Sequence record: SRR20825010_277
Reading direction: 5' to 3' (one strand)
DNA length: 44,892 bases
The position numbers and the translations under genes were made by a program. Positions 23,074 through 43,378 of this stretch are shown piece by piece; the first letter of the stretch is position 1; every line of letters begins with the position of its first letter. A model generated the notes under the pieces. The model saw only the letters and a list, made by a program, of their open reading frames with translations, was not told where the DNA came from and made no database searches.

Positions 23074-23141
23074 GTGTCCCTGAATGCTCAAGTGTTAGAC
23101 AAAGGTCTAATATGCTTGTAAATCGATCAGGTATTACATGG

Positions 23142-23156: not shown

Positions 23157-23192
23157 AACGACAAAAAGGAGTTGCGTCGTGGGGTGCGATCA

Positions 23193-23885: not shown

Positions 23886-23900
23886 TCCAAGGAGAACGCG

Positions 23901-24326: not shown

Positions 24327-24386
24327 TCAGGGCCGTGGCCGCAGATTTCCTCAGACGACAACCAATAACAATATCAGGAGTCTCCG

Positions 24387-26789: not shown

Positions 26790-28473
26790 CCAGTATGACC
26801 CCGCTGCACTCAAGCACATGGAAAAAGAGTTCGACCAGTGGGAACAGAACGAGGTGTCGTCCTTTATCAAGCGGGCGCCGGAGAGCAAGACGGAATACAC
26901 CACCGCCTCGGGAATGCCGACGAAACGTACCTACACGCCACTGGACCTGAAGAATACGCCCTTTGAGGATATTGGTTTCCCTGGGCAATACCCGTTTACG
27001 CGGGGGCCATACCCCACCATGTACCGGGGCAGGAACTGGACCATGCGCCAGATTGCCGGCTTTGGTACGGCAAGGGAAACCAACGGTCGCTTCAAGTACC
27101 TGATCGCCCAGGGCCAGACCGGTCTGTCCATCGACTTCGATATGCCGACGCTGATGGGTTACGACTCCAGCCATGCCATGAGCCAGGGTGAGGTGGGCCG
27201 CGAAGGCGTTGCCATCGACACCCTTGCCGACATGGAGGAGTTGTTCGACGATATTGATCTGACCAAGATCTCGGTATCCATGACCATCAATCCGTCCGCC
27301 TGGATTCTCTACGCCATGTACATCGCCTTGGCGCAGAAGCGGGGATACGATCTCAATGACCTGTCGGGCACCATCCAGAACGACATTCTCAAGGAGTACA
27401 TTGCCCAGAAAGAGTGGATATTTCCGGTGCGGCCGTCGGTTCGCCTGGTGCGGGACTGCATCCAGTACGGCTCCGAAAACATGAAGCGGTACAACCCTAT
27501 CAATATCTCCGGGTATCACATTTCCGAAGCCGGTTCGACAGCGGTCCAGGAAGTGGCGTACACCATGGCAACCACCATGGAGTATGTCAGGACCGCCATC
27601 GATGCGGGTGTGGATGTGAATGAGTTCGGGCCGCGCCTGTCCTTTTTCTTCGTCAGCCAGGCCGACTTCTTCGAGGAAATTGCCAAGTTCCGCGCAGCCC
27701 GGCGGGTCTATGCCAAGATCATGCGCGAAAAATTCAACGCCACCAAACCCGAGGCCAGCCGGCTTCGTTTTCACGCCCAGACTGCCGCGGCCACCCTGAC
27801 CAAGCCGCAATACACCATCAACCCGATCCGTACCGCGCTTCAGGCACTGTCTGCGGTACTGGGTGGCGCCCAATCCCTGCACACCAACGGCATGGATGAA
27901 GCGTTCGCTATTCCAACGGAAGAGGCGATGCGTATTGCCCTGCGAACCCAGCAGATCATCGCCTACGAGACCAACATCACCCAGGTGGTGGACCCATTGG
28001 GCGGTTCCTACTATGTCGAGAACCTTACCGATGAGATCGAGAAGGAAGTCTGGAAGATTCTCGACGAAGTGGAAGAGCTCGGCGGCACGCTCCAGTGCAT
28101 CGATGACGGCTACTTCCAGAGGGGCATCTCCGATTCCGCCTACGATTTCGCACTGCGCAAGGCCAGCGGTGAGCGTCCGGTTATCGGCGTCAACATGTTC
28201 GTGCAGGATGAAGAGGATGTTGAAATCGAAACCCATCCCCACGATCCGGAAACCGAACGCCGGCAGATTGAGCGCCTGAATAGGGTCAAGGACAATCGCG
28301 ACGAGGAGAAAGTCCAGGACATGCTCAGGCAACTGAAAGAGCAGGCCGAGGACGAATCGGCCAATCTCATGCCCATCACCATCGAACTGGTGAAAGAGGG
28401 CGCCTCGATGGGCGATATTGTTGAAACCCTGAAAGGGATATGGGGAACCTATCGCGAAAAACCTGTAATCTGA
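26776..28473 (+). CDS. hcmA: 2-hydroxyisobutyryl-CoA mutase large (substrate-binding) subunit
   Basis: Acyl-CoA mutase TIM barrel with RQIAGFG (Ile93, where MCM has Tyr and ICM Phe), GLSIDFD (Asp120) and KEYIAQKE (Gln in place of the MCM Arg). These correspond to Ile90/Asp117 of characterised HcmA. Confidence 0.9.
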   Translation: MKRTDQYDPAALKHMEKEFDQWEQNEVSSFIKRAPESKTEYTTASGMPTKRTYTPLDLKNTPFEDIGFPGQYPFTRGPYPTMYRGRNWTMRQIAGFGTARETNGRFKYLIAQGQTGLSIDFDMPTLMGYDSSHAMSQGEVGREGVAIDTLADMEELFDDIDLTKISVSMTINPSAWILYAMYIALAQKRGYDLNDLSGTIQNDILKEYIAQKEWIFPVRPSVRLVRDCIQYGSENMKRYNPINISGYHISEAGSTAVQEVAYTMATTMEYVRTAIDAGVDVNEFGPRLSFFFVSQADFFEEIAKFRAARRVYAKIMREKFNATKPEASRLRFHAQTAAATLTKPQYTINPIRTALQALSAVLGGAQSLHTNGMDEAFAIPTEEAMRIALRTQQIIAYETNITQVVDPLGGSYYVENLTDEIEKEVWKILDEVEELGGTLQCIDDGYFQRGISDSAYDFALRKASGERPVIGVNMFVQDEEDVEIETHPHDPETERRQIERLNRVKDNRDEEKVQDMLRQLKEQAEDESANLMPITIELVKEGASMGDIVETLKGIWGTYREKPVI

Positions 28474-28515
28474 CCGGCTTTGAATACTGACAGAACCGGT
28501 TCACGGGAGACATGA

Positions 28516-29073
28516 ATGGTCAGGCTCACCAAGATCTATACAAAAACCGGAGACAAGGGCGATACCGGTCTTGGCGACGGCAGCCGCGTCGCCAAGCATG
28601 ACCTGCGTGTGGAAGCCTACGGCACGGTGGATGAGGCCAACGCAGTGATTGGTCTCGCGCGGCTGCATGTGGACGACGAACTGGACGTGATACTGGCACG
28701 CATCCAGAACGACCTGTTTGATGTCGGGGCGGATCTGTGCACCCCGATCGTGGAGAACCCGAAATACCCGCCACTGAGGCTCGCCGAGGGCAAGACCGTT
28801 GAGCTTGAGCAGGAGATTGACCGGTTCAACGCGGATATTCCGTCGCTTCGCTCCTTTATCCTGCCCGCAGGCAATGCTGCGGCTACGCATCTCCACCATG
28901 CCCGCACGGTAACGCGGCGTGCTGAGCGCATCATTGCTCAGCTACAGGAAGAGCAGGACATCAGCCGGTTGGTGCTGGAATACATGAACCGGCTGTCCGA
29001 TTTGTTGTTCGTTCTTGCCAGACACGCCAACAACCAGGGTAAGGACGATGTGCTTTGGGTGCCGGGTGAATAA
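28516..29073 (+). CDS. pduO: ATP:cob(I)alamin adenosyltransferase, PduO type
   Basis: KIYTKTGDKGDT, EAYGTVDEAN, ARTVTRRAER and YMNRLSDLLF. Confidence 0.93.
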   Translation: MVRLTKIYTKTGDKGDTGLGDGSRVAKHDLRVEAYGTVDEANAVIGLARLHVDDELDVILARIQNDLFDVGADLCTPIVENPKYPPLRLAEGKTVELEQEIDRFNADIPSLRSFILPAGNAAATHLHHARTVTRRAERIIAQLQEEQDISRLVLEYMNRLSDLLFVLARHANNQGKDDVLWVPGE

Positions 29074-29101
29074 TGCTGGCCCGCGACCAGGGTACTGAAG
29101 C

Positions 29102-30121
29102 GTGAATTTGTCGCCGCTGGAACATGGTGGCCGGTTACGCGCCGCCGCGAAGAAGTGGGCGATTCCGCTGGATCAATGGCTGGACCTGTCCACCGGTATC
29201 AATCCGAGTGGGTGGCCGGTTCCGGCGATCCCGGAAGAGGTCTGGCGCCGCCTGCCGGACCCTGACGATGGCCTGGAGCAACTCATTAGGCAATGGGTAG
29301 GTGCGCCGGACGCCGCTGCTTGTATGGCCTTGGCCGGCAGCCAGGCGGCAATCATGCACTTGCCCCGTATACGAAAGCCGTGCCGGGTAGGTGTGCCCTC
29401 TCCGGGGTACCAGGAGCATGGTCACAACTGGGCTGTTGCCGGCCATCGGGTGATCGAGATTGGCAACGACCAGCGAGAGGACGATGACGAAAGTTGGCTG
29501 GACGAGCTGGACGTGCTGGTGTGGATCAATCCAAATAATCCCACTGGCCAGGTTGTTGATCCGGACCGGTTGCTGAGCTGGCATCAGCGGCTTCAACGTC
29601 GCGGTGGGTGGCTGATTGTAGACGAGGCGTTCGTTGATGCCACTCCGGAACTCAGTGTCGGGTATGCGACCGACAGACCCGGTCTTATCGTCATGAGATC
29701 CCTGGGTAAGTTTTTCGGCCTGGCGGGCCTGCGGGCCGGAGCTGCGGTGGGAGACCCGGATATTGTTCGCCGATTGAGCGCAGTGATCGGGCCCTGGTCA
29801 ATCAGTGGCCCTGCGCGATTTATCATGGGCCAGGCGCTGGCGGACACCCAGTGGCAGGCGGCGACGATGGGGCGGCTGCACAGTGAAAGCCAGCGGTTGG
29901 CGGACTGCCTGTCGCGGCACGGACTTGAAGGAGCCGCAGGAACTGCGCTCTTTCGATACGTTCGGCATGGCCGGGCGGCGGACATTGCAGGCGAGCTCGC
30001 ACGGCGGGGAATCCTCGTTCGGGCGTTTGAGAATCCTGCTGCACTGCGGTTTGGACTGCCCGGTTCGGAACCGGAATGGACCCGGTTGGACCAGGCACTG
30101 TATTTAAGTCATCTGTATTGA
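29102..30121 (+). CDS. cobD: L-threonine-O-3-phosphate decarboxylase (CobD/CobC)
   Basis: LEHGG, WLDLSTGINP, NPNNPTG, DEAF and PLP lysine in RSLGKFFGLAGLR. Confidence 0.9.
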   Translation: MNLSPLEHGGRLRAAAKKWAIPLDQWLDLSTGINPSGWPVPAIPEEVWRRLPDPDDGLEQLIRQWVGAPDAAACMALAGSQAAIMHLPRIRKPCRVGVPSPGYQEHGHNWAVAGHRVIEIGNDQREDDDESWLDELDVLVWINPNNPTGQVVDPDRLLSWHQRLQRRGGWLIVDEAFVDATPELSVGYATDRPGLIVMRSLGKFFGLAGLRAGAAVGDPDIVRRLSAVIGPWSISGPARFIMGQALADTQWQAATMGRLHSESQRLADCLSRHGLEGAAGTALFRYVRHGRAADIAGELARRGILVRAFENPAALRFGLPGSEPEWTRLDQALYLSHLY

Positions 30122-30164
30122 TTTAGCACATAAGGGCTGCTAGTTTGGCGCCCGATTCGATGAA

Positions 30165-30392
30165 CACCGTGTTCAGGTAACGCTTTTTGCGGTATATCCC
30201 CGCCGGAAAGCGTAAAACGGGAAGTCGGTTAAAGTCCGACGCTGCCCCCGCAACGGTAAGTGAGCTAAAGGCAATCGAAAAAGCCACTGTGCGTCATGCA
30301 TGGGAAGGTGATTGCCCCGGACCGGCCCATCGGCTGATCCACTCGCAAGCCCGGAGACCGGCCTGAATGCACACCGGAAGTTGCGGAGGGCG
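30165..30392 (+). ncRNA. Cobalamin riboswitch
   Basis: AGGT...AAAACGGGAAGTCGGT...GCTGCCCCCGCAACGGTAA...GCCACTG...GGGAAGG...AAGCCCGGAGACCGGCCT (B12 box) upstream of btuB. Boundaries approximate. Confidence 0.95.
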
Positions 30393-30525
30393 ACGGCGGT
30401 GGGAGAGTTGCGTCGGTCTCACACCCGTACCCTGACTCGTATCCTGCCTCCCCAATCTCATACTCAAACTCCGCAACACAATAACCATCACGCGGGTGCG
30501 CGTGGTTTGCCAGCGAGTGTTGATT

Positions 30526-32337
30526 ATGAGTTGTTCGAAGTCTTTGCCGGTTCTGTTTTCCGGCCTCCCCCTTGTGTTCCTGCCAGTTTCCAGTGCGCTA
30601 GCCGACGAAGAGGTAATGGTCTCGGCGCTTGACCCCATCGTTGTAACGGCCACGCTTGGTCCGAAGACCCGGGGCGAAAGTGACTCATCGGTCACGGTGA
30701 TCGATGAAGAGGCGATTGAACGCTTGCAACCTCAAACGTTCGACGAGCTGCTGATGGGCCAACCCGGCATTGATATCACCAGTAACGGCTCGTTCGGTAA
30801 GAACACCAGTGTCTACACCCGGGGTACCGGCAGCGAATCCACGGTTTTCCTGGTGGACGGCATTCGTTTGCGCTCGGCCACCAGTGGTAGTGCTGCCTGG
30901 CAGTATTTCCCGCCGCAAATGGTGGAAAGGGTAGAAATTGTTCGGGGTTCCCGCAGTAACCTGTACGGAGCCGATGCCGTGGGTGGCGTTATCCAGGCCT
31001 TCACTCACAGTGCGGAAAAGGGGCGTGAAGGTTGGGTTCAGGCCGGCGGCGGCAACTTTAACACCCAGGAATATGTGGCCGGGACGGCCGGTACTGAAGG
31101 CCGGATGACATACAGTCTGAGCGCAAGCCATCTGGAAACTGACGGCACGGCCATTGTTGAAGGGGGCGAAGACAAGGGCTTTCGTAACACCTCAGCCCTG
31201 GCGTCCGTTGCTCACCAGTTCGACTCCGGTGGGGAAGCCGGCGTTGTCCTCATGCGTGCCCAGGGCAATACCGAGTTCGAGGGCGGTGATACCGATTTTG
31301 CTATCCAAACCGTTGGTGTTCGTCTGGACGCGCCGATCAGCGACTATTGGCGGAGCCGTATCCTGTTAGCCGAATCCATTGATGAGCAGGATACACGGGA
31401 CGAATTTGGTGACAGCACCTTCGACACCAAAACCCGCAGTGCCCGTTGGGAGAACCAGATCAGTGTCGGCCGCCATGAGTACATCTTGGGCGGTGAACTC
31501 TTGATGGATGAAGTAGACAGCACCACCGACTTTGACGAAACCAGCCGCACCAACGCCGCTGTTTTTGGTCAGGCCCTGTTGAATTTTGGTCCGACGGACT
31601 TTCAGTTGAGTTTGCGCGCCGACGATAACGAGGCTTTTGGTCGTGAGGAAACCGGTGCGATCGCCATGGGTGTCGATATGGATCGCAACCATAGAGTAAG
31701 GGTGAGCTACAGCACTTCTTTCCGGGCGCCCACGTTCAATGACCTCTACTTCCCGAACTTCGGCAATGCGGATCTTCAACCGGAAACTGCAGGTAGCGTG
31801 GAGCTTGGTATTGGCGGAAATTACGCCCGTTGGTTCTGGGATGCCGCGATCTATCAGACAGACGCTGATGATCTGATTGTATTTGTCTTTAGGGACGGTC
31901 GGTTCGCACCATTCAATGTTAACGAAGCACGCATCAGGGGGGTTGAGCTGAGTGCTGGCCTGGAATTGGACGAATGGACCGTGCAGGCTGGGGCCTCGGT
32001 AACCGACCCCCGCGACCGTGAGACCGACAATAGAATTCGTCGCCGTAGCGCGAAACAGTTCCGGGTGGATCTGGATCGGGACTTCGGCCGAGTGTCGTTG
32101 GGAACCACCGTCAAGGGCCAGGGGTATCGTTACGACGATGCCGAAAACGAAGAGCGCCTCGCCGGCTTTGTCACTTGGGACCTGCGGGCAAAGTGGGAAA
32201 TCGACAGCCATTGGACCACCAATCTGACGGTCGACAACGTGCTGGACAGAGAATACGCCACGGCGCAGCGCTTTGATGGAAGTGCTTACATAGCCGCTGG
32301 CCGCACCGCAATGCTGACGATTCGCTACGACCTATGA
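30526..32337 (+). CDS. btuB: TonB-dependent vitamin B12 receptor
   Basis: Signal peptide, TonB box DPIVVTAT, plug motif VERVEIVRG...YGADAVGGVI, SFRAPTFNDLY and C-terminal YDL; downstream of the riboswitch. Confidence 0.9.
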   Translation: MSCSKSLPVLFSGLPLVFLPVSSALADEEVMVSALDPIVVTATLGPKTRGESDSSVTVIDEEAIERLQPQTFDELLMGQPGIDITSNGSFGKNTSVYTRGTGSESTVFLVDGIRLRSATSGSAAWQYFPPQMVERVEIVRGSRSNLYGADAVGGVIQAFTHSAEKGREGWVQAGGGNFNTQEYVAGTAGTEGRMTYSLSASHLETDGTAIVEGGEDKGFRNTSALASVAHQFDSGGEAGVVLMRAQGNTEFEGGDTDFAIQTVGVRLDAPISDYWRSRILLAESIDEQDTRDEFGDSTFDTKTRSARWENQISVGRHEYILGGELLMDEVDSTTDFDETSRTNAAVFGQALLNFGPTDFQLSLRADDNEAFGREETGAIAMGVDMDRNHRVRVSYSTSFRAPTFNDLYFPNFGNADLQPETAGSVELGIGGNYARWFWDAAIYQTDADDLIVFVFRDGRFAPFNVNEARIRGVELSAGLELDEWTVQAGASVTDPRDRETDNRIRRRSAKQFRVDLDRDFGRVSLGTTVKGQGYRYDDAENEERLAGFVTWDLRAKWEIDSHWTTNLTVDNVLDREYATAQRFDGSAYIAAGRTAMLTIRYDL

Positions 32338-32359
32338 TCAACCATGGAGAGGTAAGGGC

Positions 32360-35300
32360 ATGATTGAGCGCCTGTATAGGACTCTGAGACGCCCGTTGTT
32401 CGGCTGCCTTTCCGGGCTTTTGTTGATGCTGTCCCAACCAGTGTCCGGCGCCACGGTATTTGGGGTAGTGTCTGAGCGTTCCGCTGCGGAGATGGCTGCT
32501 GGTGCGGAACGCTTTCTAGCAGCCCAGCCAGATCACCGCATTATTCTGCGAACACCGGAGCAATTGGCAAACCTGGACAACAGCGCTCTCGACGATCTGG
32601 TGAGCCAGGCCGATGCCTTGTTGATGGCGGCGGTTTTCGGAGAGCAGGTGGGCCGGATTGAGCGTGCTGTGGGCGAGCAGGCCGCCGTTCGCGAGTTTGC
32701 GATTCTGGGGGTGAATGGCGACAGGGCGCTGACTGTGCTGTCACGGTTACAGGGGCGCAAGCCCCTGGAAGGGCTGGATGCCACGACCCTGAACAACCTG
32801 ATGAAAGCGCCGGACCCCGGCACGGACTTGAAAGCCCATCTGGCAGAGCTTAAGACCCGTTTCCCCGAACAGGAACCCTGGCTTGAAGGCCGGGCCCTAT
32901 ACCAGGGACGCACCCCGCAACACCTGGATGCCTTATTGCGTTGGTTGCTTGTTCAGGCGGGCGAAGAGCTTGACGTGCCGGAGTTGCCGCCCCGGTCGCT
33001 GATCCGCTATTACCGTAATGGTGAAGCCACAGATAACGCGGCGAACCTTAACCTGCAATCCGGCCCTGTGGTCGCGCTTCTGGACCTGGATAGCGGTGAT
33101 CGCCCCGGCGATCGGGCGCTGCTGGACGCAACCTGTGCAGCCCTGGAATCCAGAGGAATGCAATGCTTTGCAATCCTGTCCCGATGGGGTGGTGCCAGCC
33201 TGGAGGCTGTCCGTGCCCTGAATGAAACGGTAGGCCCGGCGACCCTGTCCGGTATTGTCAGTCTTCAGGACTTTATTATTGGAGGCGGCGAGGGTCGGCG
33301 TCAGGTCACGGAAGCGTTGGTCCGGTTGAATGTGCCGGTGATCAAGGGCTTGCGCCTGGCCTCCCGCACCACCAACCAATGGCAATTGTCGATCGATGGT
33401 ATTCCGTCTGACAAGGTGCACTACAAATTGGCGATGCCCGAGCTCCAGGGGGTCAGTCAGCCTATGGTGCTGGCTACGGCGGAGCCGGAAGTGATTGACG
33501 AAAACACCGGTGTGGCTCTGACGCTTACCCAGCCGGTGCCGGAGCGGGTGGACGCCGTTGCGGACCGCCTGAAACGCTGGCAGACGCTGCAAGCCAAGGG
33601 CAACGCCGACAAGCGCGTGGCCATCATCTACTACAATCATCCACCGGGCCGGCAGAATATTGGGGCGGACAATCTCGATGTGCCAGCTTCCCTATATGAA
33701 ATGCTGCACTGGCTTAAAGCCGAGGGCTACGAGACCGGCCCGCTGCCGGAGAGTCCGGAAGCCCTCACCGACCTCCTCCAGCAACGAGGCGTGAGCCTGC
33801 CGGATGATCCTCGCGCGCTGAGGGAAATGGCCGGTGACGTTGCCTCAATGGCGGGCAGAACCTATCGTCAGTATCTCGAAACCTTGCCCAGGGTTGTCCA
33901 GCAGGAAATGGTCCATGGCCCCCTGGGTTATTTGCATGAGCGACTTGAGCAGGCACATAGGTTGGGCGAGAAAGAATTGGCAACCGGTCTGTTGAGTCGG
34001 GGCATTCGTGACTTGCGGCACCTGCTTGAACACCTCCAGCACCCGAACCGAAAGGCGGCCCTGAGCCGACTGGACGAGTACGAAGCGCTCTGGCAAGCAC
34101 GTCTCGATGAAGGTGGTCACAGTGGGGAACTGGATGACAGCCGGGTTGCGCTGGCCGATACGGGCATTCCCGGACTAAAGGGGTGGGGAGAAGCGCCGGG
34201 CCAGTCCATGGTGGTTGATGACAGGCTGATTTTCCCTGGGCTTCGATTCGGTAATATTTACATCGGTCCGCAACCGCCCCGGGGCTGGGAAGTGGATGAA
34301 GAATTGTTACACGCCAATACCACCTTCCCCCCGACCCACCAGTACGTGGGTTTCTACCACTGGTTACGGGATCACTACCAGGCTGATGCGCTGGTCTACG
34401 TTGGGCGCCACTCAACCAGGGAATTTCTGCCACGCCGCCGTGCTGGTTTGACGGGGGATGACTACCCGGACCTGCTGGGGGGTGACCTGCCATTGATCTA
34501 CCCTTACATCGTCGACGGTGTGGGTGAGGGCATCCAGGCCAAGCGCCGGGCGCTGGGAGTCATGATCAGTCACTTGACGCCGCCGCTGGCCGCAACGGAG
34601 CTTTATGACGAACTGCTGGAGCTCCGACAGCTCGTGGAAACCTGGGAATCCGCCAATGAGCCCGACAGCCCTACCAGGGAGCGGGCGCTGAAGATGCTGC
34701 GGGAGGAAATCCAGGTGCTGGATATCTCCGACGATCTCGAACAGGAAATCGCTGGCGAGATGGGGTTGTCGGTGGAAGAGGTGTCGCTCGATGAACTTTC
34801 ACCCGACCTGCTGGTTCACGAAGCCGGCCACTACGTCACCGATATGCAGGAACACTTTATGCCCCTGGGGCTGCACGTGTTTGGGCGGGATTGGAGCACA
34901 GACATGGTGGACACCATGCTCGACTCCATGGCGGGTAAGGCCGGCAAGCCAGAACCGGCCTGGCGCACCGATCTTGAAGCGTCTCCTGCTTCTGAGCGCA
35001 CCAGCTTTCTCAACGCGTTGAATGGCCGGTTTGTTGCTCCGGGGCAGGGCAACGATCCATTGCGAACGCCGGCGGTATTGCCAACGGGGCGCAATTTTCA
35101 CGCCTTGTCGGATGACCTGATTCCAACCCGTGTGGCCTGGTCGCTGGCTGAAGAACTGGTCGAGGAGGCCAGGGCCACAAAAGACAGCACCTCAGAACAA
35201 AGCGATGCACTGGTGCTCTGGGCCTCGGATACGGTGCGAGACGAAGGGGTCATGATTGCGTTTGGCATGAAGCTATTGGGTGTGCGCCCGGTGTGGAACA

Positions 35301-36571
35301 GTCGGGGCATCGTGAAAGGCCTGGAGCGTTTGCCCGCCGGCCCGGGAACCGATACACCCATTCGTCGCAATGTGGTTTTCACCACGTCCGGCTTGTTCCG
35401 GGATCTTTATGAAAGCCAACTGGAATGGCTGGATATGGCATCGCGTTACGCCTTGGCGGGTGCGGCGGAATCCATCAGGGCCGAGCACCCGGAGCTAAAC
35501 GAGGCATTGGACCAAGCGTTATCGGTTCTGCCGGTCGACATGCGTAAGCCGGGCGAGGAATCCCTGTCCACCAACGGTGTTGCCGCCCACTGGGTCGCTG
35601 ATGCACGGGTATTGCTGGCCGCAGGTGCGTCGGCTCGGGATGCGGGGGCAAAGGCCGCTTACCGGGTCTTCGGTACGGCTCCGGGCGCATACGGTGCGGG
35701 GGTTAACCGGCTTGCTACCCGCACGGGCGCCTGGCAGGACCGGGAGCAACTGGGTGACGCTTATCGCCGGCGCATGGGGCACGTCTATGGCAAGGGCAGC
35801 CAGGGTGAACCGGCTCACGATGCTTTCGACCGACAATTGCGGTCGGTGAACCATACCTATCTTGGGCGGGCCAGCCACCTCTATGGCCTGCTGGACAACG
35901 ATGACGGTTTTGATTTCCAGGGCGGGCTGTCCAACGCCGTGGAGCACTTGCGCGGCGAGCCACCGCAGAACCGGGTGCTCCAGTACGCAGACCCGCGAAA
36001 TCCCCGGGTGGATTCGCTTCAGCGAGCGCTGCAGGTAGAGCTGAGAGCCCGTAATCTGAACCCGCAATGGTTGGCCCCACTGATGGAGCACGGCTATGCC
36101 GGTGCCCGCACCATGGGCAGTGATTTTCTCGACAACCTATGGGGCTGGCAAATCACAAGCCCACAAGTGCTTCGTTCCAGTGTGTGGGACGAGGTCAATG
36201 AAGTGTACTTTCAGGATCGCCACGGCCTTGGCCTGGATGACTTCCTGGCAGAGGGCCACAACGTGTATGTCAAAACCCACATGCAGGCGATTGCGCTCCT
36301 GGCCGCGAAACGGGGCTTCTGGGAGGCGGACGTCTTCACCCGTCAGGCCCTGGCACGTGACTTCGCCGGAAACATCATCGACCATGGCCTTCCCGGCAGT
36401 GGCCACACCCGTCCGGATCACCCCCTGATGGATTGGGTCGCGGACCAGTTGGACCCCCGGCAGCGGGAAGCCTTCGAGTCCGCGCGAAAAGGTGGGTCGG
36501 CCGACTTTCCCCCGTTAGGCGCTGCCAACGATGATTGTCAGACTCCCGGAAACCAGAGGGCCTCATGTTGA
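32360..36571 (+). CDS. CobN/Mg-chelatase-H-like protein with predicted N-terminal signal peptide
   Basis: IIYYNHPPG, LDVPASL, GPQPPRG, YPYIVDGVGEGIQAKRR, LPTGRNF, FTTSGLFRD, YGAGV and NPQW..LMEHGYAGA are CobN-family motifs; N-terminus is basic, then hydrophobic, then VSG/A. Confidence 0.88.
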   Translation: MIERLYRTLRRPLFGCLSGLLLMLSQPVSGATVFGVVSERSAAEMAAGAERFLAAQPDHRIILRTPEQLANLDNSALDDLVSQADALLMAAVFGEQVGRIERAVGEQAAVREFAILGVNGDRALTVLSRLQGRKPLEGLDATTLNNLMKAPDPGTDLKAHLAELKTRFPEQEPWLEGRALYQGRTPQHLDALLRWLLVQAGEELDVPELPPRSLIRYYRNGEATDNAANLNLQSGPVVALLDLDSGDRPGDRALLDATCAALESRGMQCFAILSRWGGASLEAVRALNETVGPATLSGIVSLQDFIIGGGEGRRQVTEALVRLNVPVIKGLRLASRTTNQWQLSIDGIPSDKVHYKLAMPELQGVSQPMVLATAEPEVIDENTGVALTLTQPVPERVDAVADRLKRWQTLQAKGNADKRVAIIYYNHPPGRQNIGADNLDVPASLYEMLHWLKAEGYETGPLPESPEALTDLLQQRGVSLPDDPRALREMAGDVASMAGRTYRQYLETLPRVVQQEMVHGPLGYLHERLEQAHRLGEKELATGLLSRGIRDLRHLLEHLQHPNRKAALSRLDEYEALWQARLDEGGHSGELDDSRVALADTGIPGLKGWGEAPGQSMVVDDRLIFPGLRFGNIYIGPQPPRGWEVDEELLHANTTFPPTHQYVGFYHWLRDHYQADALVYVGRHSTREFLPRRRAGLTGDDYPDLLGGDLPLIYPYIVDGVGEGIQAKRRALGVMISHLTPPLAATELYDELLELRQLVETWESANEPDSPTRERALKMLREEIQVLDISDDLEQEIAGEMGLSVEEVSLDELSPDLLVHEAGHYVTDMQEHFMPLGLHVFGRDWSTDMVDTMLDSMAGKAGKPEPAWRTDLEASPASERTSFLNALNGRFVAPGQGNDPLRTPAVLPTGRNFHALSDDLIPTRVAWSLAEELVEEARATKDSTSEQSDALVLWASDTVRDEGVMIAFGMKLLGVRPVWNSRGIVKGLERLPAGPGTDTPIRRNVVFTTSGLFRDLYESQLEWLDMASRYALAGAAESIRAEHPELNEALDQALSVLPVDMRKPGEESLSTNGVAAHWVADARVLLAAGASARDAGAKAAYRVFGTAPGAYGAGVNRLATRTGAWQDREQLGDAYRRRMGHVYGKGSQGEPAHDAFDRQLRSVNHTYLGRASHLYGLLDNDDGFDFQGGLSNAVEHLRGEPPQNRVLQYADPRNPRVDSLQRALQVELRARNLNPQWLAPLMEHGYAGARTMGSDFLDNLWGWQITSPQVLRSSVWDEVNEVYFQDRHGLGLDDFLAEGHNVYVKTHMQAIALLAAKRGFWEADVFTRQALARDFAGNIIDHGLPGSGHTRPDHPLMDWVADQLDPRQREAFESARKGGSADFPPLGAANDDCQTPGNQRASC

Positions 36572-37461
36572 AATCGTTCCGGCATACCGCTGCGTTGATG
36601 TCGTTAGCTCTGGCCATGTCACCGGGGGCTGTGGCCGGTACTGAGCGATGTGCAACCGACGATACCGGCCAGGAAGTCTGCCTTGAACAACCGGCCAGCC
36701 GGATCGCGGCCTTGTCTCCCGGAGCAACCGAACTTGTCTGGGCTGCAGGCGCCGGTGATCAGGTCATCGCGGTGGTTTCGTACAGTGATTACCCCGAGCA
36801 GGCGAAGCAGGTCACCTCTGTGGGTAGCCACACTCGAATGGACCTTGAGCGCCTGATGGCACTGAAACCTGACCTGGTCATTGGTTGGGTGACGGGCAAC
36901 CCGCCGGAACAGATTGCGGCCCTGAAGGACCTGGGGTTGCCGGTGTTTTCCATTGAGCCCCGGAGTTTTGAGGGCGTTTCAAGCACCATCGAACGGCTGT
37001 CGATTCTGGCGGGTACCGAAGATGAAGGCTTTGCCGAAGCAGATCGTTTCCGCAAGGGAATGGCTTCACTGGAAAAACAATATCAGGGTGCGGAGCCGGT
37101 CTCGGTGTTCTATCAGGTGTGGGATGAGCCTCTGATGACCGTGAACGACGAGCACCTGATTGGTAAGGTGATCACGCTATGCGGAGGCGTGAACGTATTC
37201 GGTGATCTTGATCGCCTGGTGCCGAGGATCAGTGCCGAGGCGGTTATCGGCGCCAACCCTGAGGCCATTCTGGCCGGTGGCATGGGTGAAGAGAACCGGC
37301 ACTGGCTGACCCGCTGGGAGGCTTTCCAGAGTATCGATGCCACCGCGAAGGAGAACCTGTACTTCGTTCCACCGTCGCTGATCCAGCGCCCGACGCCGCG
37401 TATTCTGAAAGGTTCACAACTGTTTTGCGAGAAACTGGATGATGCCCGTGCCAAACGTTAG
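36565..37461 (+). CDS. btuF: Periplasmic cobalamin-binding protein
   Basis: Signal peptide, RIAALSPGATELV, SDYPEQA and QRPTPR; ATG 36565 overlaps the stop of the CobN-like gene. Confidence 0.88.
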   Translation: MLKSFRHTAALMSLALAMSPGAVAGTERCATDDTGQEVCLEQPASRIAALSPGATELVWAAGAGDQVIAVVSYSDYPEQAKQVTSVGSHTRMDLERLMALKPDLVIGWVTGNPPEQIAALKDLGLPVFSIEPRSFEGVSSTIERLSILAGTEDEGFAEADRFRKGMASLEKQYQGAEPVSVFYQVWDEPLMTVNDEHLIGKVITLCGGVNVFGDLDRLVPRISAEAVIGANPEAILAGGMGEENRHWLTRWEAFQSIDATAKENLYFVPPSLIQRPTPRILKGSQLFCEKLDDARAKR

Positions 37462-37476
37462 TGGGAGACAGACCCC

Positions 37477-38448
37477 TTGAGCAGGCCTCTGACCATGCCA
37501 CTTGTGTTGTTGGCTCTGGCCAGCCTGGCCGCCATGATGTTGTCGGTGGGTGTTGGCAGTGTCAGCGTGGCACCGGGAGATGTTGTCGCCGTCATTCTGG
37601 GTGAGGGCAGCAACCTGCAGCAAACCCTGGTGCTGGAATTGCGCCTGCCACGGACACTGTCCGCTTTCGCAACGGGCGGTTTGCTGGCCGTGGCCGGGGC
37701 TCTGATGCAGGTGCTGTTACGCAATCCGTTGGCGGACCCCTACGTTCTGGGGTTGTCTGGCGGTGCTGCCGTCGGGGCCTTGTTTGCGATGTTGGCGGGC
37801 CTGGGTGGTTTGATGATTTCGGGATCGGCTTTTGCCGGTGCGTTGTTGGCCACACTGATGGTGTTCGGCCTGGCCCATGGGACCGGAAGCTGGACGCCGT
37901 CGCGTTTGTTGCTCACCGGTGTGGTGGTCGCCGCAGGCTGGGGCGCGGTGATTACCCTGATGCTGGCGATCAGCCCGGCCCAGCGCTTACCGGGAATGTT
38001 GTACTGGTTGATGGGCGATGTGTCCTACGCTAGAACGCCCTGGCCCGCACTGGCTTTCCTGGTGCTGGTGTGTCTTTTGGTGGTGCCCCTGGGGCGGAGT
38101 CTTAACGTACTGGCACGCGGCCCCATGCAGGCGGCAGCCCTCGGGGTAGCGGTGCGCCCCCTGGAATGGACGATCTATATCCTCGCCAGCCTGCTCACGG
38201 CCACCGCGGTCACCATGGCTGGCAGTATTGGTTTTGTCGGTCTGGTAGTGCCCCACATGTTGCGGCTGGTCCTCGGTAATGACCAGCGCCTGATCCTCCC
38301 TGCCTGTGCACTGGCTGGCGGCACGCTGCTGGTGCTGGCGGATACCCTGGCACGGGTGGTGATTGCGCCCGAGCAGTTGCCGGTAGGTGTGATTACGGCC
38401 TTGCTGGGTGTACCCACCTTCCTTTACCTGTTGTATCGGAGCCGCTGA
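37477..38448 (+). CDS. btuC: Cobalamin ABC transporter permease (FecCD family)
   Basis: LRLPR, LLRNPLADPYVLG and GSIGFVGLVVPH. Confidence 0.88.
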   Translation: MSRPLTMPLVLLALASLAAMMLSVGVGSVSVAPGDVVAVILGEGSNLQQTLVLELRLPRTLSAFATGGLLAVAGALMQVLLRNPLADPYVLGLSGGAAVGALFAMLAGLGGLMISGSAFAGALLATLMVFGLAHGTGSWTPSRLLLTGVVVAAGWGAVITLMLAISPAQRLPGMLYWLMGDVSYARTPWPALAFLVLVCLLVVPLGRSLNVLARGPMQAAALGVAVRPLEWTIYILASLLTATAVTMAGSIGFVGLVVPHMLRLVLGNDQRLILPACALAGGTLLVLADTLARVVIAPEQLPVGVITALLGVPTFLYLLYRSR

Positions 38449-39218
38449 TGAATCCGTTGCAGGCTAGACAGTTGGTCATCGACATTCCCGGGCGGGGCGA
38501 TGGGGAAGCGCTGAACTTTGCCGTGGAACCCGGGCAGATCTGGGGCGTTTTGGGGCCAAATGGTGCCGGCAAGACGACGCTCTTGCACACACTGGCGGGG
38601 TTGCGAGCACCACGTCACGGATCGGTTTGCCTGGGAGAGCATCCTTTGGCAGACCTGAAGCGCAGGACAATATCGCAACAACTGGGGATGGTTTTCCAGG
38701 AACGGCAGGACGGTTTTCCCGCGACGGTACTGGAAACGGCGCTGATCGGGCGCCACCCCTGGTTGTCACCCTGGCAGATGGAGTCCGGCGCCGATGAACG
38801 TCTTGCGAGAGGCGCTCTGGAACAGCTGGATGTGGGCCATCTCAGTGATCGGCTGGTGAACACACTTTCCGGCGGTGAACGCCAGAGAGTAGCCATTGCC
38901 ACAGTGCTGACCCAGGCACCTGATACCTGGCTTCTGGATGAACCCACCAATCACCTTGATCTGCACCATCAAGTGTCGGTACTCCAGTTACTGACCGAGC
39001 AGGCGCGTAGTGGGCGTTCGGTATTCATGTGTCTGCACGATCTGAATCTCGCGGCACGATGGTGTGACCATCTGCTATTGCTGTACCCCAACGGCGAAGC
39101 GTGCTGGGGGCCTGCAGAACGAATGCTCGTGCCGGCTGCACTTGAACGGCTTTATGATCAGGAACTTCTGACAGTGGACGTGGATGGTGCGCCGCTATTT
39201 GTCCCTGTTAAGTATTGA
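38448..39218 (+). CDS. btuD: Cobalamin ABC transporter ATPase
   Basis: GPNGAGKTT, LSGGERQR, LLDEPTNHLD and LHDLN. Confidence 0.88.
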   Translation: MNPLQARQLVIDIPGRGDGEALNFAVEPGQIWGVLGPNGAGKTTLLHTLAGLRAPRHGSVCLGEHPLADLKRRTISQQLGMVFQERQDGFPATVLETALIGRHPWLSPWQMESGADERLARGALEQLDVGHLSDRLVNTLSGGERQRVAIATVLTQAPDTWLLDEPTNHLDLHHQVSVLQLLTEQARSGRSVFMCLHDLNLAARWCDHLLLLYPNGEACWGPAERMLVPAALERLYDQELLTVDVDGAPLFVPVKY

Positions 39219-39231
39219 ACGTAGGAGCTAT

Positions 39232-40560
39232 ATGAAAGCAACCGTACCAGCCGCAATGATTACCGCACCAGGTTCTGGCCAGGGGAAGTCCATGGTGACC
39301 GCAGCACTGGCGAGATTGCATAGGAATGCCGGACGAAAGGTACGGGTGTTCAAGCACGGCCCGGATTACCTGGACCCGATGGTGCTGGAAGTCGCATCCG
39401 GACAGCCGGTGTACCAGTTACATCCGTGGATGACGGGCGAGGACGAGTGTCGCTGGCGTCTGATGGAAGCCGCGCAGGATGCCGACCTTATTCTGGTGGA
39501 AGGATCAATGGGATTGTTTGACGGTGACCCTTCCAGTGCGGACCTCGCCAAGCTGATGGGTATTCCCGCTCTGCCGGTCATTGATGCCCGCGGCATGGCT
39601 CAGACTTTTGGAGCGGTGGCTCTGGGATTATCAAAATTCGACTCCGCGCTTCCGGTTTATCAGGTGATTGCCAACCGCATCGGAAGTCCCCGACATGGGG
39701 CTATGCTGCGGGAGAGCCTGCCTGAAGGCATCAGTCTGCTAGGGGCCATTCCCCGAAACGAGGCCATGAGTCTTCCAAACCGGCATCTTGGGCTGGTTCA
39801 GGCCGGCGAGTTGGGCGATCTGGAGCAGCGTCTGGACGCCGCCGCTGACGTTCTTGCGGAAGCAGGGCTGGATGGCCTGCCGCTTCCCGTGACGTTGGAA
39901 GCTGAACCCCCGGAGTCCCCACCACCGTTGCTTGAGGGGGTTCGCATCGCCATTGCCCGGGACGCAGCGCTGAGTTTTATTTACCGCGCTAATCTGGACC
40001 TGTTGCAGGCGATGGGGGCAAAACTGTCTTTCTTCTCCCCGATGATAGATTCAGCATTGCCAGACGCCGACGCCCTCTGGTTACCAGGCGGGTACCCGGA
40101 ACTTCATGGTGCCACTCTGGCCGGTAACCGTTCGATGTTGGAGGCGATTCGCAACCACTACAGCGCCGGTAAACCCATGCTGGCCGAGTGTGGCGGGTTA
40201 ATGGCCTGTGTGGAGGAACTGGCGGACCACGACGGAGAGATCCACAACCTGCTCGGAATTATCCCCGGTCGCGTCAGTATGGCCGGCCGCCTGCAGGCGC
40301 TGGGTTTGCAGAGCCTGAATACCGAGCAGGGGCAGTTGCGGGGGCATACCTATCATCACTCGCGACTGGAAACTGACTGGCAACCCCTGGCCCGAACCCG
40401 CAAGGTTGCGGGCACCGAGGCTGAACCGGTGTATTGCCGGAAGGGGCTGGTGGCCAGCTATTTCCACGGCTATTTTCCCTCCGCCCCAGAACTGGTGGCC
40501 GGAATTTTTCGCGGGCAGGCCATTCGCCCGCTTATCGATAAGGAGCCTGACTATGCGTGA
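39232..40560 (+). CDS. cobB: Cobyrinate / hydrogenobyrinate a,c-diamide synthase
   Basis: SGQGKS, FKHGPDYLDP, VEGSMGLFDG, RHLGLVQ, LPGGYPEL and AECGG; ATG 39232 with AGGAG RBS. Confidence 0.92.
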   Translation: MKATVPAAMITAPGSGQGKSMVTAALARLHRNAGRKVRVFKHGPDYLDPMVLEVASGQPVYQLHPWMTGEDECRWRLMEAAQDADLILVEGSMGLFDGDPSSADLAKLMGIPALPVIDARGMAQTFGAVALGLSKFDSALPVYQVIANRIGSPRHGAMLRESLPEGISLLGAIPRNEAMSLPNRHLGLVQAGELGDLEQRLDAAADVLAEAGLDGLPLPVTLEAEPPESPPPLLEGVRIAIARDAALSFIYRANLDLLQAMGAKLSFFSPMIDSALPDADALWLPGGYPELHGATLAGNRSMLEAIRNHYSAGKPMLAECGGLMACVEELADHDGEIHNLLGIIPGRVSMAGRLQALGLQSLNTEQGQLRGHTYHHSRLETDWQPLARTRKVAGTEAEPVYCRKGLVASYFHGYFPSAPELVAGIFRGQAIRPLIDKEPDYA

Positions 40561-41164
40561 ACGCGCCAAAGACCCCGAACGCCATGCCCGCCGCATGGAC
40601 GCAAAGCAGAAGATCATGCAGGAGCGCATCGCCCGTGCCCAGAAAGAACAGGGTGTGCTGCTGGTGCTGACCGGCCCGGGTAAAGGCAAGAGCAGTTCCG
40701 GTTTTGGCATGGTGGCCCGGGCGCTCGGCCATGGCATGAAAGTGGGTATTGTCCAGTTCATCAAAGGCGCATTCAGCACCGGTGAAGAAGCGTTCTTCCG
40801 CGAATTGCCCAACGTGAGTTATCACGTGATGGGCCAGGGCTATACCTGGGATACCAAGAACCGGGAGCAGGACGTGGAGGCAGCCAATGCCGCCTGGGAT
40901 GTGGCCGCCAACATGTTGAAAGACGACAGCTACGACCTAGTCCTGCTGGACGAACTCAACATCGCCCTGAAGTACGACTATATTGATCTCGACCGTGTTC
41001 TGGACGACCTCCAGGGCCGCCCGGAGATGCAGCATGTGGTAGTGACCGGTCGGTCGGCACCACAGGAACTGGTGGACCTGGCGGACACTGTCACGGAAAT
41101 GGGCGTGGTGAAGCATGCCTTCAAGGACCAGGGTGTGAAAGCCCAGAAAGGTGTCGAGCTGTAA
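40553..41164 (+). CDS. cobO: Cob(I)yrinic acid a,c-diamide adenosyltransferase (CobO/BtuR type)
   Basis: TGPGKGKSSSGFG, VQFIKG, LLDELN, TGR and KHAF; ATG 40553 with AAGGAG RBS. Confidence 0.94.
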   Translation: MRERAKDPERHARRMDAKQKIMQERIARAQKEQGVLLVLTGPGKGKSSSGFGMVARALGHGMKVGIVQFIKGAFSTGEEAFFRELPNVSYHVMGQGYTWDTKNREQDVEAANAAWDVAANMLKDDSYDLVLLDELNIALKYDYIDLDRVLDDLQGRPEMQHVVVTGRSAPQELVDLADTVTEMGVVKHAFKDQGVKAQKGVEL

Positions 41165-41179: not shown

Positions 41180-42646
41180 ATGACCACGTTGATGATACAG
41201 GGAACGACTTCCGATGCCGGCAAAACGACGGTCGTCGCCGCCCTGTGTCGGTGGCTGGCGCGGCAGGGTGTTTCCGTGGCGCCTTTCAAACCTCAGAACA
41301 TGGCCCTAAACAGTGCGGTTACCGTAGACGGCGGTGAAATAGGCCGTTCCACGGCACTTCAGGCACTGGCCTGCGGGCTCGCCCCGCATAGCGATATGAA
41401 TCCGGTGTTGCTCAAGCCCCAGAGTGACTGCGGTGCCCAGGTAATCCTGCGAGGCAAGGTTCACGGCAATATGAACGCTCTGGATTACCATGCCTACAAG
41501 GCCGAGGCGATGGCCTCTGTGATGGAGGCATGGCGTGACCTGAGTGCCCGCTATGACGTAATCATTGCCGAAGGGGCTGGTAGCCCCGCCGAGATCAATT
41601 TGCGTGCGAATGATATTGCCAACATGGGCTTCGCCGAAGCGGCCGATTGCCCAGTGCTCCTCGTCGGCGATATTGACAAGGGTGGTGTGTTTGCCCAACT
41701 GGTGGGCACGCTTGAACTCATCACCGAGAGCGAACGAGCGCGCACGAAAGGCTTCGTTATCAACCGTTTTCGGGGCGATATTGCCTTGTTGAAGCCAGGC
41801 CTGGATTGGCTGGCCGAACGCACTGATAAAGCCGTAGCTGGCGTATTGCCGTATCTGCATGGCTTGGTGATTGACGCAGAAGACAGCGTTGGCACCAGTG
41901 GCACCCATGAACCCGATGCACTGAATGTGATCGTCCCGGTGTTACCTCGCATCAGCAACCACAATGACTTCGACCCCCTTCGTCTGCACCCGGGCGTCAA
42001 CCTCCAATTCATCGGCCCCGACCAGCGGATTCCTCCGGCTGACCTGATCCTGTTACCGGGCAGCAAAAGCACCCGGCATGATCTGCAATGGCTGAGATCC
42101 CAGGGCTGGCCTGAGGCTATTCAGAAACACCTCCGTTATGGCGGCAAGGTGTTAGGCATTTGCGGCGGCTTTCAGATGATGGGGCGGTCGGTATCCGACC
42201 CGGACGGCCTGGAAGGGGATGCCGGTACCACGCCTGGCCTTGAGTTGCTCAACATGACCACACGGATGGTTGCCGGCAAAACGCTGAAGGACGTTTCCGG
42301 AGAGTTAACGCTTGGCAGTGGAAGGCCGGGGTTCACAGGTTATGAGATGCATAACGGTATTTCCTGTGGCCCCGCGCTTGAACGCCCCATGGCGACGCTG
42401 AATGGACAGCCTGAAGGCGCAGTGAGTGGGGACGGTCAGATAATTGGAACCTATGTTCACGGCATTTTCGATCAGCCTGAAGCGACCCGTGAGATACTCG
42501 AATGGGCGGGCTTTGGAGCTCAGCATCAGGCCGTAGACTACAAGGCACATCGCCTGGAACAGCTGGATCGACTGGCGGATCTTGTTGAGGAGTGTCTGGA
42601 CACGGGGTTTCTGAAGCATTTGCTGGGACTCAACCGACGGCATTAG
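41180..42646 (+). CDS. cobQ: Cobyric acid synthase
   Basis: [40 protein letters not shown] and GYEMH. Confidence 0.96.
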
Positions 42647-42655: not shown

Positions 42656-43378
42656 ATGATAGACGACAAAACCCACCGGCCAAACCAGAATCGCCCCTTT
42701 AGTGATGAAGAAACGAGCGGGCTTTATCGTGCGATCCATGAACGCCGGGATGTGCGCTCGCAGTTTCTTCCTGATCCGATTCCCCCTGATGTCCTTGCCC
42801 GACTGCTCGACGCGGCCCACCACGCACCCTCCGTCGGTTTTATGCAGCCGTGGGACTTTCTCGTGATCGATAGCAAGTCAGTGCGCAGCGCAGTGCTTTC
42901 CATTTTCGAGGAAGAAAACCGGAAAGCCGCGGAAAATTATGAAGGCGATCGCAATACACAGTATAAGAGTCTGAAGCTCCAGGGCATCCTGGAGAGCCCG
43001 ATTAATCTATGCATCACCTGTGACCGAAGTCGTGGTGGTAGCCATGTGCTGGGACGTAACTCGATCGTCGAAACGGATCTTTTCAGTACGTGCCTGGCGG
43101 TACAGAACTTTTGGCTGGCAGCAAGGGCTGAAGGGATCGGTGTGGGCTGGGTCAGTATTCTGGATCAGGAAAAGCTGGCGAAGACACTGAAGCTCCCCGA
43201 ACACGTATACCCGTTGGCCTATCTGTGCCTTGGCTATGTCAGCGAGTTTCTTGAACAGCCTGAACTACAGAAAAAGGGATGGCGCTCGCGGTTGCCTCTG
43301 GCTGATCTTGTGCATGGAAGCACCTGGAGTGAGTCGTTGACGGAACCGGCGTTAGAAGCAGAGATCAGGAAAGGTTAA
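42656..43378 (+). CDS. bluB: 5,6-dimethylbenzimidazole synthase (flavin destructase)
   Basis: RRDVR, APSVGFMQPWDF, LKLQGI and LAARAEGIGVGWVSI; in B12 operon. Confidence 0.92.
   Translation: MIDDKTHRPNQNRPFSDEETSGLYRAIHERRDVRSQFLPDPIPPDVLARLLDAAHHAPSVGFMQPWDFLVIDSKSVRSAVLSIFEEENRKAAENYEGDRNTQYKSLKLQGILESPINLCITCDRSRGGSHVLGRNSIVETDLFSTCLAVQNFWLAARAEGIGVGWVSILDQEKLAKTLKLPEHVYPLAYLCLGYVSEFLEQPELQKKGWRSRLPLADLVHGSTWSESLTEPALEAEIRKG

Follow-up and report, generated by a model that had tools for sequence, protein, structure and literature searches.

The stretch of DNA considered here, 44,892 nucleotides (nt) from sequence record SRR20825010_277 and called the window from this point on, contains a vitamin B12 operon in which the gene for a CobN-like protein, predicted to be exported, lies between the genes encoding the receptor BtuB and the periplasmic binding protein BtuF. 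All members of the operon are on the + strand, in the order cobalamin riboswitch, btuB, CobN-like gene, btuF, btuC, btuD, cobB, cobO, cobQ and bluB. The exported CobN-like class is not new, as it corresponds to the BtuS/HmuS-type module, and the window protein nests inside a B12-linked clade of this class, within which it is set apart by the loss of a membrane anchor and of two partner genes. The reading put forward here, at a probability of about 45%, is that it is a cobaltochelatase of the periplasm, acting on metal-free corrinoids that enter through BtuB. The features on which the argument draws are the following.

30169..30370, + strand: cobalamin riboswitch aptamer, at the head of the operon (Rfam RF00174, 97.4 bits, gathering score 31.5)
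30496..32337, + strand: BtuB-type TonB-dependent receptor with Plug and beta-barrel domains (TIGR01779, 455 bits, under the cut-off of 599.7)
32360..32449, + strand: predicted signal peptide, residues 1-30, with a basic n-region, a hydrophobic core, small -3/-1 residues and predicted cleavage after V-S-G
32450..36571, + strand: mature exported CobN-like protein (as predicted), residues 31-1403, and stop codon (Pfam CobN-Mg_chel, 799.5 bits)
34403..34432, + strand: GRHSTREFLP motif, in which His684 corresponds to HmuS His-538 (phmmer alignment to 9d26)
34517..34543, + strand: GVGEGIQAKRR motif, in which Glu723 corresponds to HmuS Glu-577 (phmmer alignment and 55-row alignment)
35894..35905, + strand: D-N-D-D, residues 1179-1182, with Asp1182 at the position of HmuS His-1209 and of the ChlH His
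36380..36421, + strand: HGLPGSGHTRPDHP, a His-rich motif within a C-terminal extension that is gapped in 5/5 canonical CobNs
36536..36568, + strand: C-terminal Cys-x9-Cys, which stands where relatives have a linker and a membrane helix
36565..37461, + strand: btuF, periplasmic corrinoid-binding protein (Peripla_BP_2; NF002894 BtuF, 168.5 bits, under the cut-off of 234)
37477..38448, + strand: btuC (FecCD / ABC_tran domain matches, shared with btuD)
38448..39218, + strand: btuD (FecCD / ABC_tran domain matches, shared with btuC)
39184..40560, + strand: cobB, (hydrogeno)byrinic acid a,c-diamide synthase (NF002204, 413.4 bits, above the cut-off of 254)
40406..41164, + strand: cobO, corrinoid adenosyltransferase (NF004637, 273.8 bits, above the cut-off of 185, from residue 57 of the listed open reading frame onward; the true start probably lies near that residue)
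41180..42646, + strand: cobQ (NF001989, 652 bits)
42656..43378, + strand: bluB (TIGR02476, 277 bits)

The CobN-like open reading frame (ORF) spans 32360..36571 (+) and encodes 1403 amino acids (aa) from an ATG that begins 22 nt past the btuB stop codon and is preceded, at a distance of 7 nt, by a GGAGAGG Shine-Dalgarno sequence. Its stop codon is overlapped by the ATG at 36565, the likely start of btuF, and BtuF has a signal peptide of its own from Met11 of the listed btuF ORF. The match to PF02514 (CobN-Mg_chel) is far above the cut-off of 24.5 bits, and all the NCBIfam equivalog cut-offs for CobN/BchH were missed (551.8 against 1619 for the top model, 493.1 against 822.05 for TIGR02257). A preliminary description of this DNA had reported a 1403-aa protein of the CobN/BchH family, encoded between btuB and btuF behind a B12 riboswitch, and this account holds for both the family and the location; the genes that follow btuD, namely cobB, cobO, cobQ and bluB, had been overlooked. 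The same description had found no cobS, cobT, chlI, chlD or ring-building genes, and none was detected among the larger window ORFs that were picked and scanned. MotA/ExbB-like and DUF2149 genes are likewise missing from the window.

Several observations indicate that the protein is destined for export. Its N-terminus consists of basic residues and a hydrophobic core that ends in V-S-G before Ala31, and the simple sequence rules applied by the authors for all signal-peptide calls class it as a probable Sec-type signal peptide, in line with the earlier suggestion. The homologue set comprised 121 proteins, the query and 120 listed ones, of which 120 were N-terminally complete; a hydrophobic presequence of 12-50 aa was found in 118 of these 120 and small residues at -3/-1 in 110. 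The letters of the presequence vary freely among the homologues, and its end always falls directly before the highly conserved start of the mature protein. Two homologues (P0104 and P0114) carry a lipobox, as judged by eye, and the five canonical CobNs taken from annotated plasmids have no such N-terminal segment. Because the RR pair of the n-region is not conserved among the homologues, the Sec route is preferred; Tat export was considered and ruled out on the same ground. At the opposite end of the chain, 55 of 57 homologues from other genera possess a C-terminal membrane helix followed by a basic tail, which places the bulk of these proteins outside, a topology that they share with HmuS (PMC12583661). 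The window protein has no hydrophobic stretch in its tail and would be a Sec-exported, soluble protein of the periplasm.

The search for related loci returned 563 relatives of the CobN-like protein, and the locus counts given here rest on 80 of them, 44 from hosts other than Marinobacter and 36 of the Marinobacter type. The closest proteins are those of M. salarius R9SW1 (99% identity) and M. algicola DG893 (95%). Further hosts are Halomonadaceae, Alcanivorax, Thioalkalivibrio, Allohahella, Arhodomonas, Porticoccaceae and Pseudomonas indica, and relatives at 47-53% identity occur in Myxococcota, Verrucomicrobiota, Nitrospirota, Nitrospinota, Acidobacteriota and Binatia. The phmmer scores of the window protein against CobN (345 bits), ChlH (335) and HmuS (334) are nearly equal. 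Its relation to ChlH and HmuS was judged from these scores and the alignments, and the tree was rooted on canonical CobNs only, whose long outgroup branches were flagged. This maximum-likelihood tree (LG+G4, quick search, SH-aLRT support only), built from 50 family rows and five canonical CobNs, has a long branch between the exported family and canonical CobN (1.43 + 1.43 changes per column), and the window protein falls in a separate exported clade, as the preliminary description had envisaged.

In 41 of the 44 non-Marinobacter loci, genes of the MotA/ExbB family (PF01618) and of the DUF2149 family (PF09919) follow directly on the same strand, and in 42 the CobN-like protein ends with an acidic linker, a membrane helix and a basic tail. 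The exceptions are two loci that run off their contigs (L046, L080), one that is frameshifted (L087) and one that keeps the helix and has no stator-like genes within 9.9 kb (L066). The pair of small genes is missing from all 36 Marinobacter-type loci; in 32 of them the sequence extends for 2.7 kb or more downstream. DUF2149 was not found anywhere in the nearest genome, G001, a Marinobacter assembly distinct from that of the window, with which it shares 64% of words; its completeness is 97% and its contamination 6%. All genome-wide statements in this text come from G001 and its relatives. Similarly, none of the 63 proteins in the group of 66-99% identity, which is Marinobacter wherever a source names the protein, has the C-terminal helix, and 51 of them end in Cys-x7-12-Cys. 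The word partner-less, used in the preliminary description, therefore suits the window and Marinobacter, but it is not a trait of the family.

The 13 Marinobacter rows form one clade (13/13, support 98), sister to Halomonadaceae and deep within the anchored lineages; owing to this nested position, the absence of the helix and of both small genes is secondary and goes back to a single evolutionary event. The stem branch of the clade is no longer than that of its sister (0.086 vs 0.11), and the ratio of nonsynonymous to synonymous substitution rates (dN/dS) between the window gene and its M. algicola counterpart (L010) is 0.077 at a dS of 0.24, more distant pairs being saturated. The window-type gene is under strong purifying selection. 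The C-terminal Cys pair and a second pair, Cys259 and Cys269, kept in at least 80% of the 50 family rows, could form periplasmic disulfides. The C-terminal anchor of the relatives was also compared with known sorting domains, and this assignment was rejected, as only weak, sub-threshold matches were obtained. As a separate observation, the frame of the ortholog in the deposited M. salarius R9SW1 genome is split by the loss of one base from a G-run (L037 at ~12887, equal to window position 35246, and G001:C1 at ~3006670), owing to a sequencing error or because the gene is a pseudogene in that strain; in the window the frame is intact, and its length of 1403 aa recurs in a 99%-identical cluster with 235 member sequences.

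The active site was compared through phmmer alignments to solved structures and through an alignment of 55 rows, the 50 family members and five canonical CobNs mentioned above. The motif GRHST is present in all of the 121 listed homologues and GLPGxGH in 120 of them. The column of His684 is invariant in the 50 family rows as well as in the five canonical CobNs, and its counterpart in HmuS, His-538, is essential for dechelation (PMC12583661); Glu723, the equivalent of HmuS Glu-577, is also invariant. The second dyad is Asp-1208/His-1209 in HmuS, Ser-His in ChlH and D/N-Asp in the exported family (Asp1181-Asp1182 in the window), and the Asp at position 1182 is found without exception in the 50 family rows, in 5/5 canonical CobNs and in the structure 9UK9. 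The two motifs singled out in the preliminary description, one with its His kept and one rich in His near the C-terminus, are both present. The latter belongs to a C-terminal extension with GLPGSGHTRPDHP that only the exported family possesses, and it may constitute a metal site. A further family-specific stretch of ~115 residues, at about 491-606 (nt about 33830-34177), was left unaligned by phmmer to CobN, ChlH and HmuS.

The connection with B12 is not confined to the window. A cobalamin riboswitch was found upstream on the same strand in 10 of the 12 non-Marinobacter loci that were tested; the CobN-like gene follows it directly in P. indica (L084) and in a member of the Limisphaerales (L071), and in Methylophaga (L085) its end is separated from this gene by 140 nt. 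The other two loci (L066, L082) gave no riboswitch match. At least one gene for B12 uptake or the late pathway (btuB, btuFCD, cobB, cobO, cobQ, bluB, cobU, cobT, cobC, pduO or a CobD-type aminotransferase) accompanies the CobN-like gene in 32 of the 44 non-Marinobacter and 35 of the 36 Marinobacter-type loci, counts that come from a crude ORF clustering which undercounts. The arrangement cobB > CobN-like > cobO > cobQ in five loci (L022, L026-L029) reproduces the order of the steps in the aerobic pathway, and a sixth locus (L024) reads cobB > CobN-like > cobO before its contig ends.

The genomes that carry the exported family mostly do not make the corrin ring. G001 has a single CobN-family locus and only two TP_methylase loci, and CobJ/CbiH was not found in it. 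CobS was not found there either, the top match to its model scoring 114 bits against a cut-off of 558.55; ChlI was absent as well (top score of 27 bits), and no CobW was detected at E<=1e-20. Thus, the lack of an AAA+ partner and of ring genes noted for the window extends to the nearest genome, which has no second CobN. The CobS-like match (L005, G001:C1:4076110-4080063) was rejected as CobS since it is an ATPase with AAA_5 and CbbQ_C domains encoded beside a YqaJ-like recombinase and a DUF3150 protein; this CbbQ/NorQ-type AAA+ ATPase resembles CobS over its full length (113 bits) and looks like part of a mobile element. In the genomes G001, G299 and G293, the operon btuB is the only BtuB-type match at E<=1e-40.

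Across the 52 genomes that carry the exported family, CobJ/CbiH is missing from 44, many of which are drafts or metagenome-assembled genomes (MAGs), so that some of these absences may be gaps. CobJ/CbiH served as the marker because the CobG model had to be dropped from the co-occurrence analysis of 251 Gammaproteobacteria, where it gave 71 matches, three of them above the cut-off, and cross-matched sulfite/nitrite reductases. Two unpublished genomes among the class samples (G045, G147) enter the tallies only, and two others from the class sample (G125, G100) have CobG above the cut-off and gave no match when the window protein was used as the query. On this evidence the exported family resides mainly in ring-less bacteria that still keep cobB and cobQ, two genes that are not needed for the salvage of cobinamide or B12 alone.

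Eight carriers make the ring. Seven of them have the anchored form: three Thioalkalivibrio genomes (G003, G263, G264), Allohahella (G004), G198, an Alcanivorax MAG (G260) and a Thiohalorhabdus MAG (G271). CobJ is present in all seven, and CobG was found in G003 and G198. A second CobN-family match was found in none of them (G198 was queried with the window protein and not with the family model), nor were CobS, ChlI or a true CobW, and the anchored form, which stands next to the ring cluster as the only class I chelatase gene found, looks like the only late chelatase of these hosts. In G003 (L090) it heads the series CobN-like, MotA-like, DUF2149, cobO, cobB, cobA, cbiD, cobG, cobH, cobI, cobJ and cobL, and neither CbiX nor CbiK was found in that genome. 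In Allohahella sp. A8 (G004:C1), the cob/CobN-like region occurs twice, at 1,465,387-1,485,716 and 1,501,596-1,521,925, 36 kb apart and with identical scores, due either to a real duplication or to an assembly artefact.

The eighth ring-maker, Marinobacter sp. DUT-3 (G293, L013), has the anchor-less form. Its co-oriented array (7999-24189 and onward) consists of btuB, the exported CobN-like gene, btuFCD, cbtB, cbtA, a ChlID-type motor (TIGR02442, 470 bits), cobW (451 bits) and canonical cobN (1269 bits), and cobJ follows at a distance of a few kb. Because the full canonical set stands beside the exported gene, the anchor-less form is no replacement for the cytoplasmic enzyme in this organism.

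These data lead to the following proposal for the window protein. BtuB would bring in metal-free corrinoids of the hydrogenobyrinic-acid type, into which the exported enzyme would insert Co(II) in the periplasm. The resulting cobalt corrinoid would then be imported by BtuF and BtuCD and finished by CobB, CobO and CobQ, the products of co-transcribed genes, together with lower-pathway genes located elsewhere. In the relatives, the helix-tethered enzyme would work with the MotA/ExbB-like and DUF2149 proteins, a presumed proton-driven stand-in for the CobST motor that is driven by adenosine triphosphate (ATP), and the Marinobacter enzyme would function without a dedicated motor after the loss of the helix and of the partner genes. 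The coupling of energy through the C-terminal helix is suggested by the co-occurrence and joint loss of these parts; a complex prediction with the MotA/ExbB-like protein, the DUF2149 protein and the C-terminal tail of a Halomonas homologue, run without alignments or controls, gave a score of 0.01. The substrate and the direction of the reaction assigned here to the exported CobN-like protein are likewise putative. The preliminary description had offered three roles (cobalt removal, cobalt loading, or binding and sorting), of which loading fits best because cobB, cobO and cobQ are present in ring-less genomes, because the second dyad has the Asp of CobN, and because seven ring-makers have this as their only class I chelatase. 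Taken as a whole, its observation is confirmed and its interpretation is partly supported.

A number of points weigh against cobalt loading. Canonical CobN depends on its motor, and the window protein has none. As CobB is cytoplasmic, insertion in the periplasm must precede a,c-amidation, unlike the reaction of CobN. No sign was seen of metal-free corrinoids in seawater, or of BtuB and BtuF carrying them. The argument drawn from Asp versus His in the second dyad concerns one alignment column, and the periplasmic location itself follows from the authors' sequence rules. The ring-maker DUT-3 calls for caution, since it retains canonical CobN, ChlID and CobW next to the exported gene. Concerning the other ring-makers, a small CbiX is encoded in G004 (L091), far from the CobN-like locus; G003, G260 and G271 are drafts or MAGs; and, of the seven genomes with the anchored form, the CbiX search covered G003 and G004. 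Lastly, no biochemistry exists for any B12-linked member, and HmuS, the only characterised exported member, removes metal and does not insert it (PMC12583661).

According to textbooks, the insertion of cobalt into B12 is cytoplasmic and driven by ATP. The broader notion that it also takes place outside the cytoplasm, by means of a motor-independent periplasmic enzyme that would let ring-less marine bacteria make B12 from metal-free corrinoids that they scavenge and from the cobalt of seawater, and of anchored relatives that serve as the sole, proton-powered cobaltochelatase of some CobG-type producers, is doubtful at present. If true, it would change how B12 salvagers are classified from genomes, would account for the retention of cobB and cobQ by ring-less bacteria, and would bear on the way in which cobalt-poor seawater limits the supply of B12. 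The exported chelatase family, of which HmuS was the first member to be characterised, as late as 2025, would moreover gain a second chemistry. Of all members of the clade, the Marinobacter form is the simplest to purify and assay, as it is predicted to be soluble, has neither anchor nor motor and is found in marine bacteria that can be cultured and manipulated genetically. DUT-3, in which the exported and canonical systems occur together, already provides a comparison.

Among the alternatives, the one that survives best, although unlikely, is that metal transfer was lost along with the anchor and motor, so that the protein now binds corrinoids received from BtuB and passes or sorts them to BtuF. 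The disappearance of the helix, the MotA/ExbB-like gene and DUF2149 in one event would agree with such a hand-off, as would the position of the gene between btuB and btuF with overlapping start and stop, its placement on the sole route through BtuB in G001, G299 and G293, and the full canonical chelatase set alongside it in DUT-3. What this explanation does not account for is the conservation of the catalytic apparatus, as His684, Glu723, Asp1182 and the His-rich C-terminal motif are still invariant in Marinobacter, and the low dN/dS applies to the full length, with no speed-up after the loss. Moreover, an enzyme scaffold of 150 kDa would be a costly binder where BtuF is present, and the cobB and cobQ of ring-less genomes would be left unexplained.

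A dechelatase or metal-exchange enzyme similar to HmuS, which would free imported corrinoids or other metallo-tetrapyrroles of cobalt or of a wrong metal in the periplasm, is distinctly unlikely. Control is exerted by a B12 riboswitch and not by iron or zinc; the 44 of 52 carriers that are ring-less would have no B12-linked use for the freed cobalt; the His of the second HmuS dyad is Asp here, as in CobN; and the HmuS region with the haem ligands Met-79 and His-254 is unaligned. Cobalt is not known to be removable from the corrin ring under mild conditions. That metal-free corrins are produced by engineered biosynthesis (PMC7756841) was also counted against this enzyme, and cobalt removal is the worst fit of the three roles originally offered. 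The idea draws its appeal from the precedents: the exported HmuS is motor-free with the same His/Glu dyad (PMC12583661), BtuS was predicted to act in the "salvage of metalloporphyrins" (Rodionov 2003, as cited in PMC6460266), and the PA1922-25 cassette responds to zinc limitation (PMC4542158, PMC9431628).

Some other periplasmic chemistry on the chelatase scaffold, such as one that takes off an axial ligand or a redox reaction that readies corrinoids for BtuF, might explain why the family alone has the insertion of ~115 residues and the His-rich C-terminal extension, and why no NCBIfam equivalog cut-off is reached. It is nonetheless highly unlikely, since the superfamily is not known for activities other than metal insertion or removal (PMC12583661), and the residues of the metal site are conserved. 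Finally, the possibility that the protein is an ordinary CobN of the cytoplasm whose start was miscalled, or the remnant of a decaying gene, for which the database name "cobaltochelatase subunit CobN" and the R9SW1 deletion could be cited, is extremely improbable in view of the Shine-Dalgarno sequence before the ATG at 32360, the residues after the presequence, which are among the most conserved of the family, the failure to find motor, CobW or ring genes in G001, the clade apart from canonical CobN, the dN/dS value, and the 235 sequences that have the same length.

Other observations concern the surroundings of the CobN-like gene and its transcripts. Upstream of the riboswitch, positions 23172-30121 are occupied by a B12-dependent acyl-CoA mutase cluster, with genes for a GntR/FCD regulator, an AMP-binding ligase, a MeaB GTPase, a 565-aa MM_CoA_mutase protein, a PduO-type adenosyltransferase and a CobD-type aminotransferase; as this cluster adjoins the operon, genes for the consumption and for the supply of B12 are neighbours. 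Contigs from RNA libraries, originating from three runs of one study (on a relative with about 98% identity) and from a single metatranscriptome of seawater, span nearly all of the region from btuB to btuF and bridge both junctions of the CobN-like gene; they attest presence only and give no ranking of expression, and carry-over of DNA is possible. Their depth is 28-48 over the riboswitch leader (30100-30670) and about 5-12 downstream (30700-37500) in runs X5, X7 and X8. A leader that is more deeply covered would fit attenuation by the riboswitch, a hint to be taken with the proviso that contig depth is not an expression measure.

With regard to known systems, the literature search returned no paper testing a B12-linked exported CobN-like protein; the superfamily map of PMC12583661 (Dataset EV4) may already show the clade. 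The best-characterised relative is HmuS of B. thetaiotaomicron (PDB 9D26), a haem dechelatase encoded in the hmuYRSTUV operon of Bacteroidota (PMC12583661). Like the window protein, it belongs to the CobN superfamily, faces the outside of the cytoplasm (by prediction in the case of the window protein), works without an AAA+ motor, is encoded beside a TonB-dependent receptor, and has His-538 and Glu-577 in the places of His684 and Glu723. With the anchored relatives of the window protein it shares N- and C-terminal anchoring and the MotA/ExbB and DUF2149 neighbours, which in the corresponding Porphyromonas cassette are arranged as hmuS-hmuT-hmuU (MotA/TolQ/ExbB)-hmuV (DUF2149) (PMC11681262, PMC10434189). 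Unlike HmuS, the window protein is tied to B12 and not to haem or iron, has Asp in place of His-1209, and lacks both the C-terminal helix and genes similar to hmuTUV, with btuB and btuF standing in for hmuY and hmuR. The phmmer alignment between the two begins at HmuS residue 261, beyond the part that contains both Met-79 and His-254; the window protein forms a separate clade that is by score no nearer to HmuS than to CobN or ChlH.

BtuS was named by Rodionov et al. in 2003 as a third type of CobN relative, as cited in PMC6460266, and in that article BtuS1 and BtuS2 of B. fragilis were studied for haem iron and not for B12. The window protein shares with the BtuS-type module its place in the clade, the signature motifs, the control by a riboswitch and the predicted signal peptide, and differs from it by having no C-terminal anchor or stator-like genes, by its Cys-x9-Cys end and by its position between btuB and btuF. 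A comparable set of genes is the P. aeruginosa cassette PA1922-PA1925, a member of the Zur regulon that encodes a receptor, the CobN-like PA1923, an ExbD/MotA-like protein and a DUF2149 protein (PMC4542158, PMC9431628). The combination of a receptor, a CobN-like protein and a stator-like pair is what it has in common with the BtuS-type module; it is zinc-regulated and likened by gene content only, and the clade member of P. indica (L084) is under a B12 riboswitch.

The last comparison is with canonical CobN, the large subunit of the CobNST or CobN-ChlID cobaltochelatase of the aerobic pathway (PDB 9UK9 and 7C6O, and the proteins of S. meliloti, Ralstonia and others). The window protein differs from it by an identity of only ~30%, scores under the equivalog cut-offs, the predicted signal peptide and the extra His-rich extension at the C-terminus, and by the lack of CobS/T, ChlI/D and CobW in the nearest genome, G001. 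Nevertheless, the two have in common the full-length domain and the His, Glu and Asp-Asp residues, and the neighbours of the window gene include cobB, cobO and cobQ, as expected for a step between CobB and CobO.

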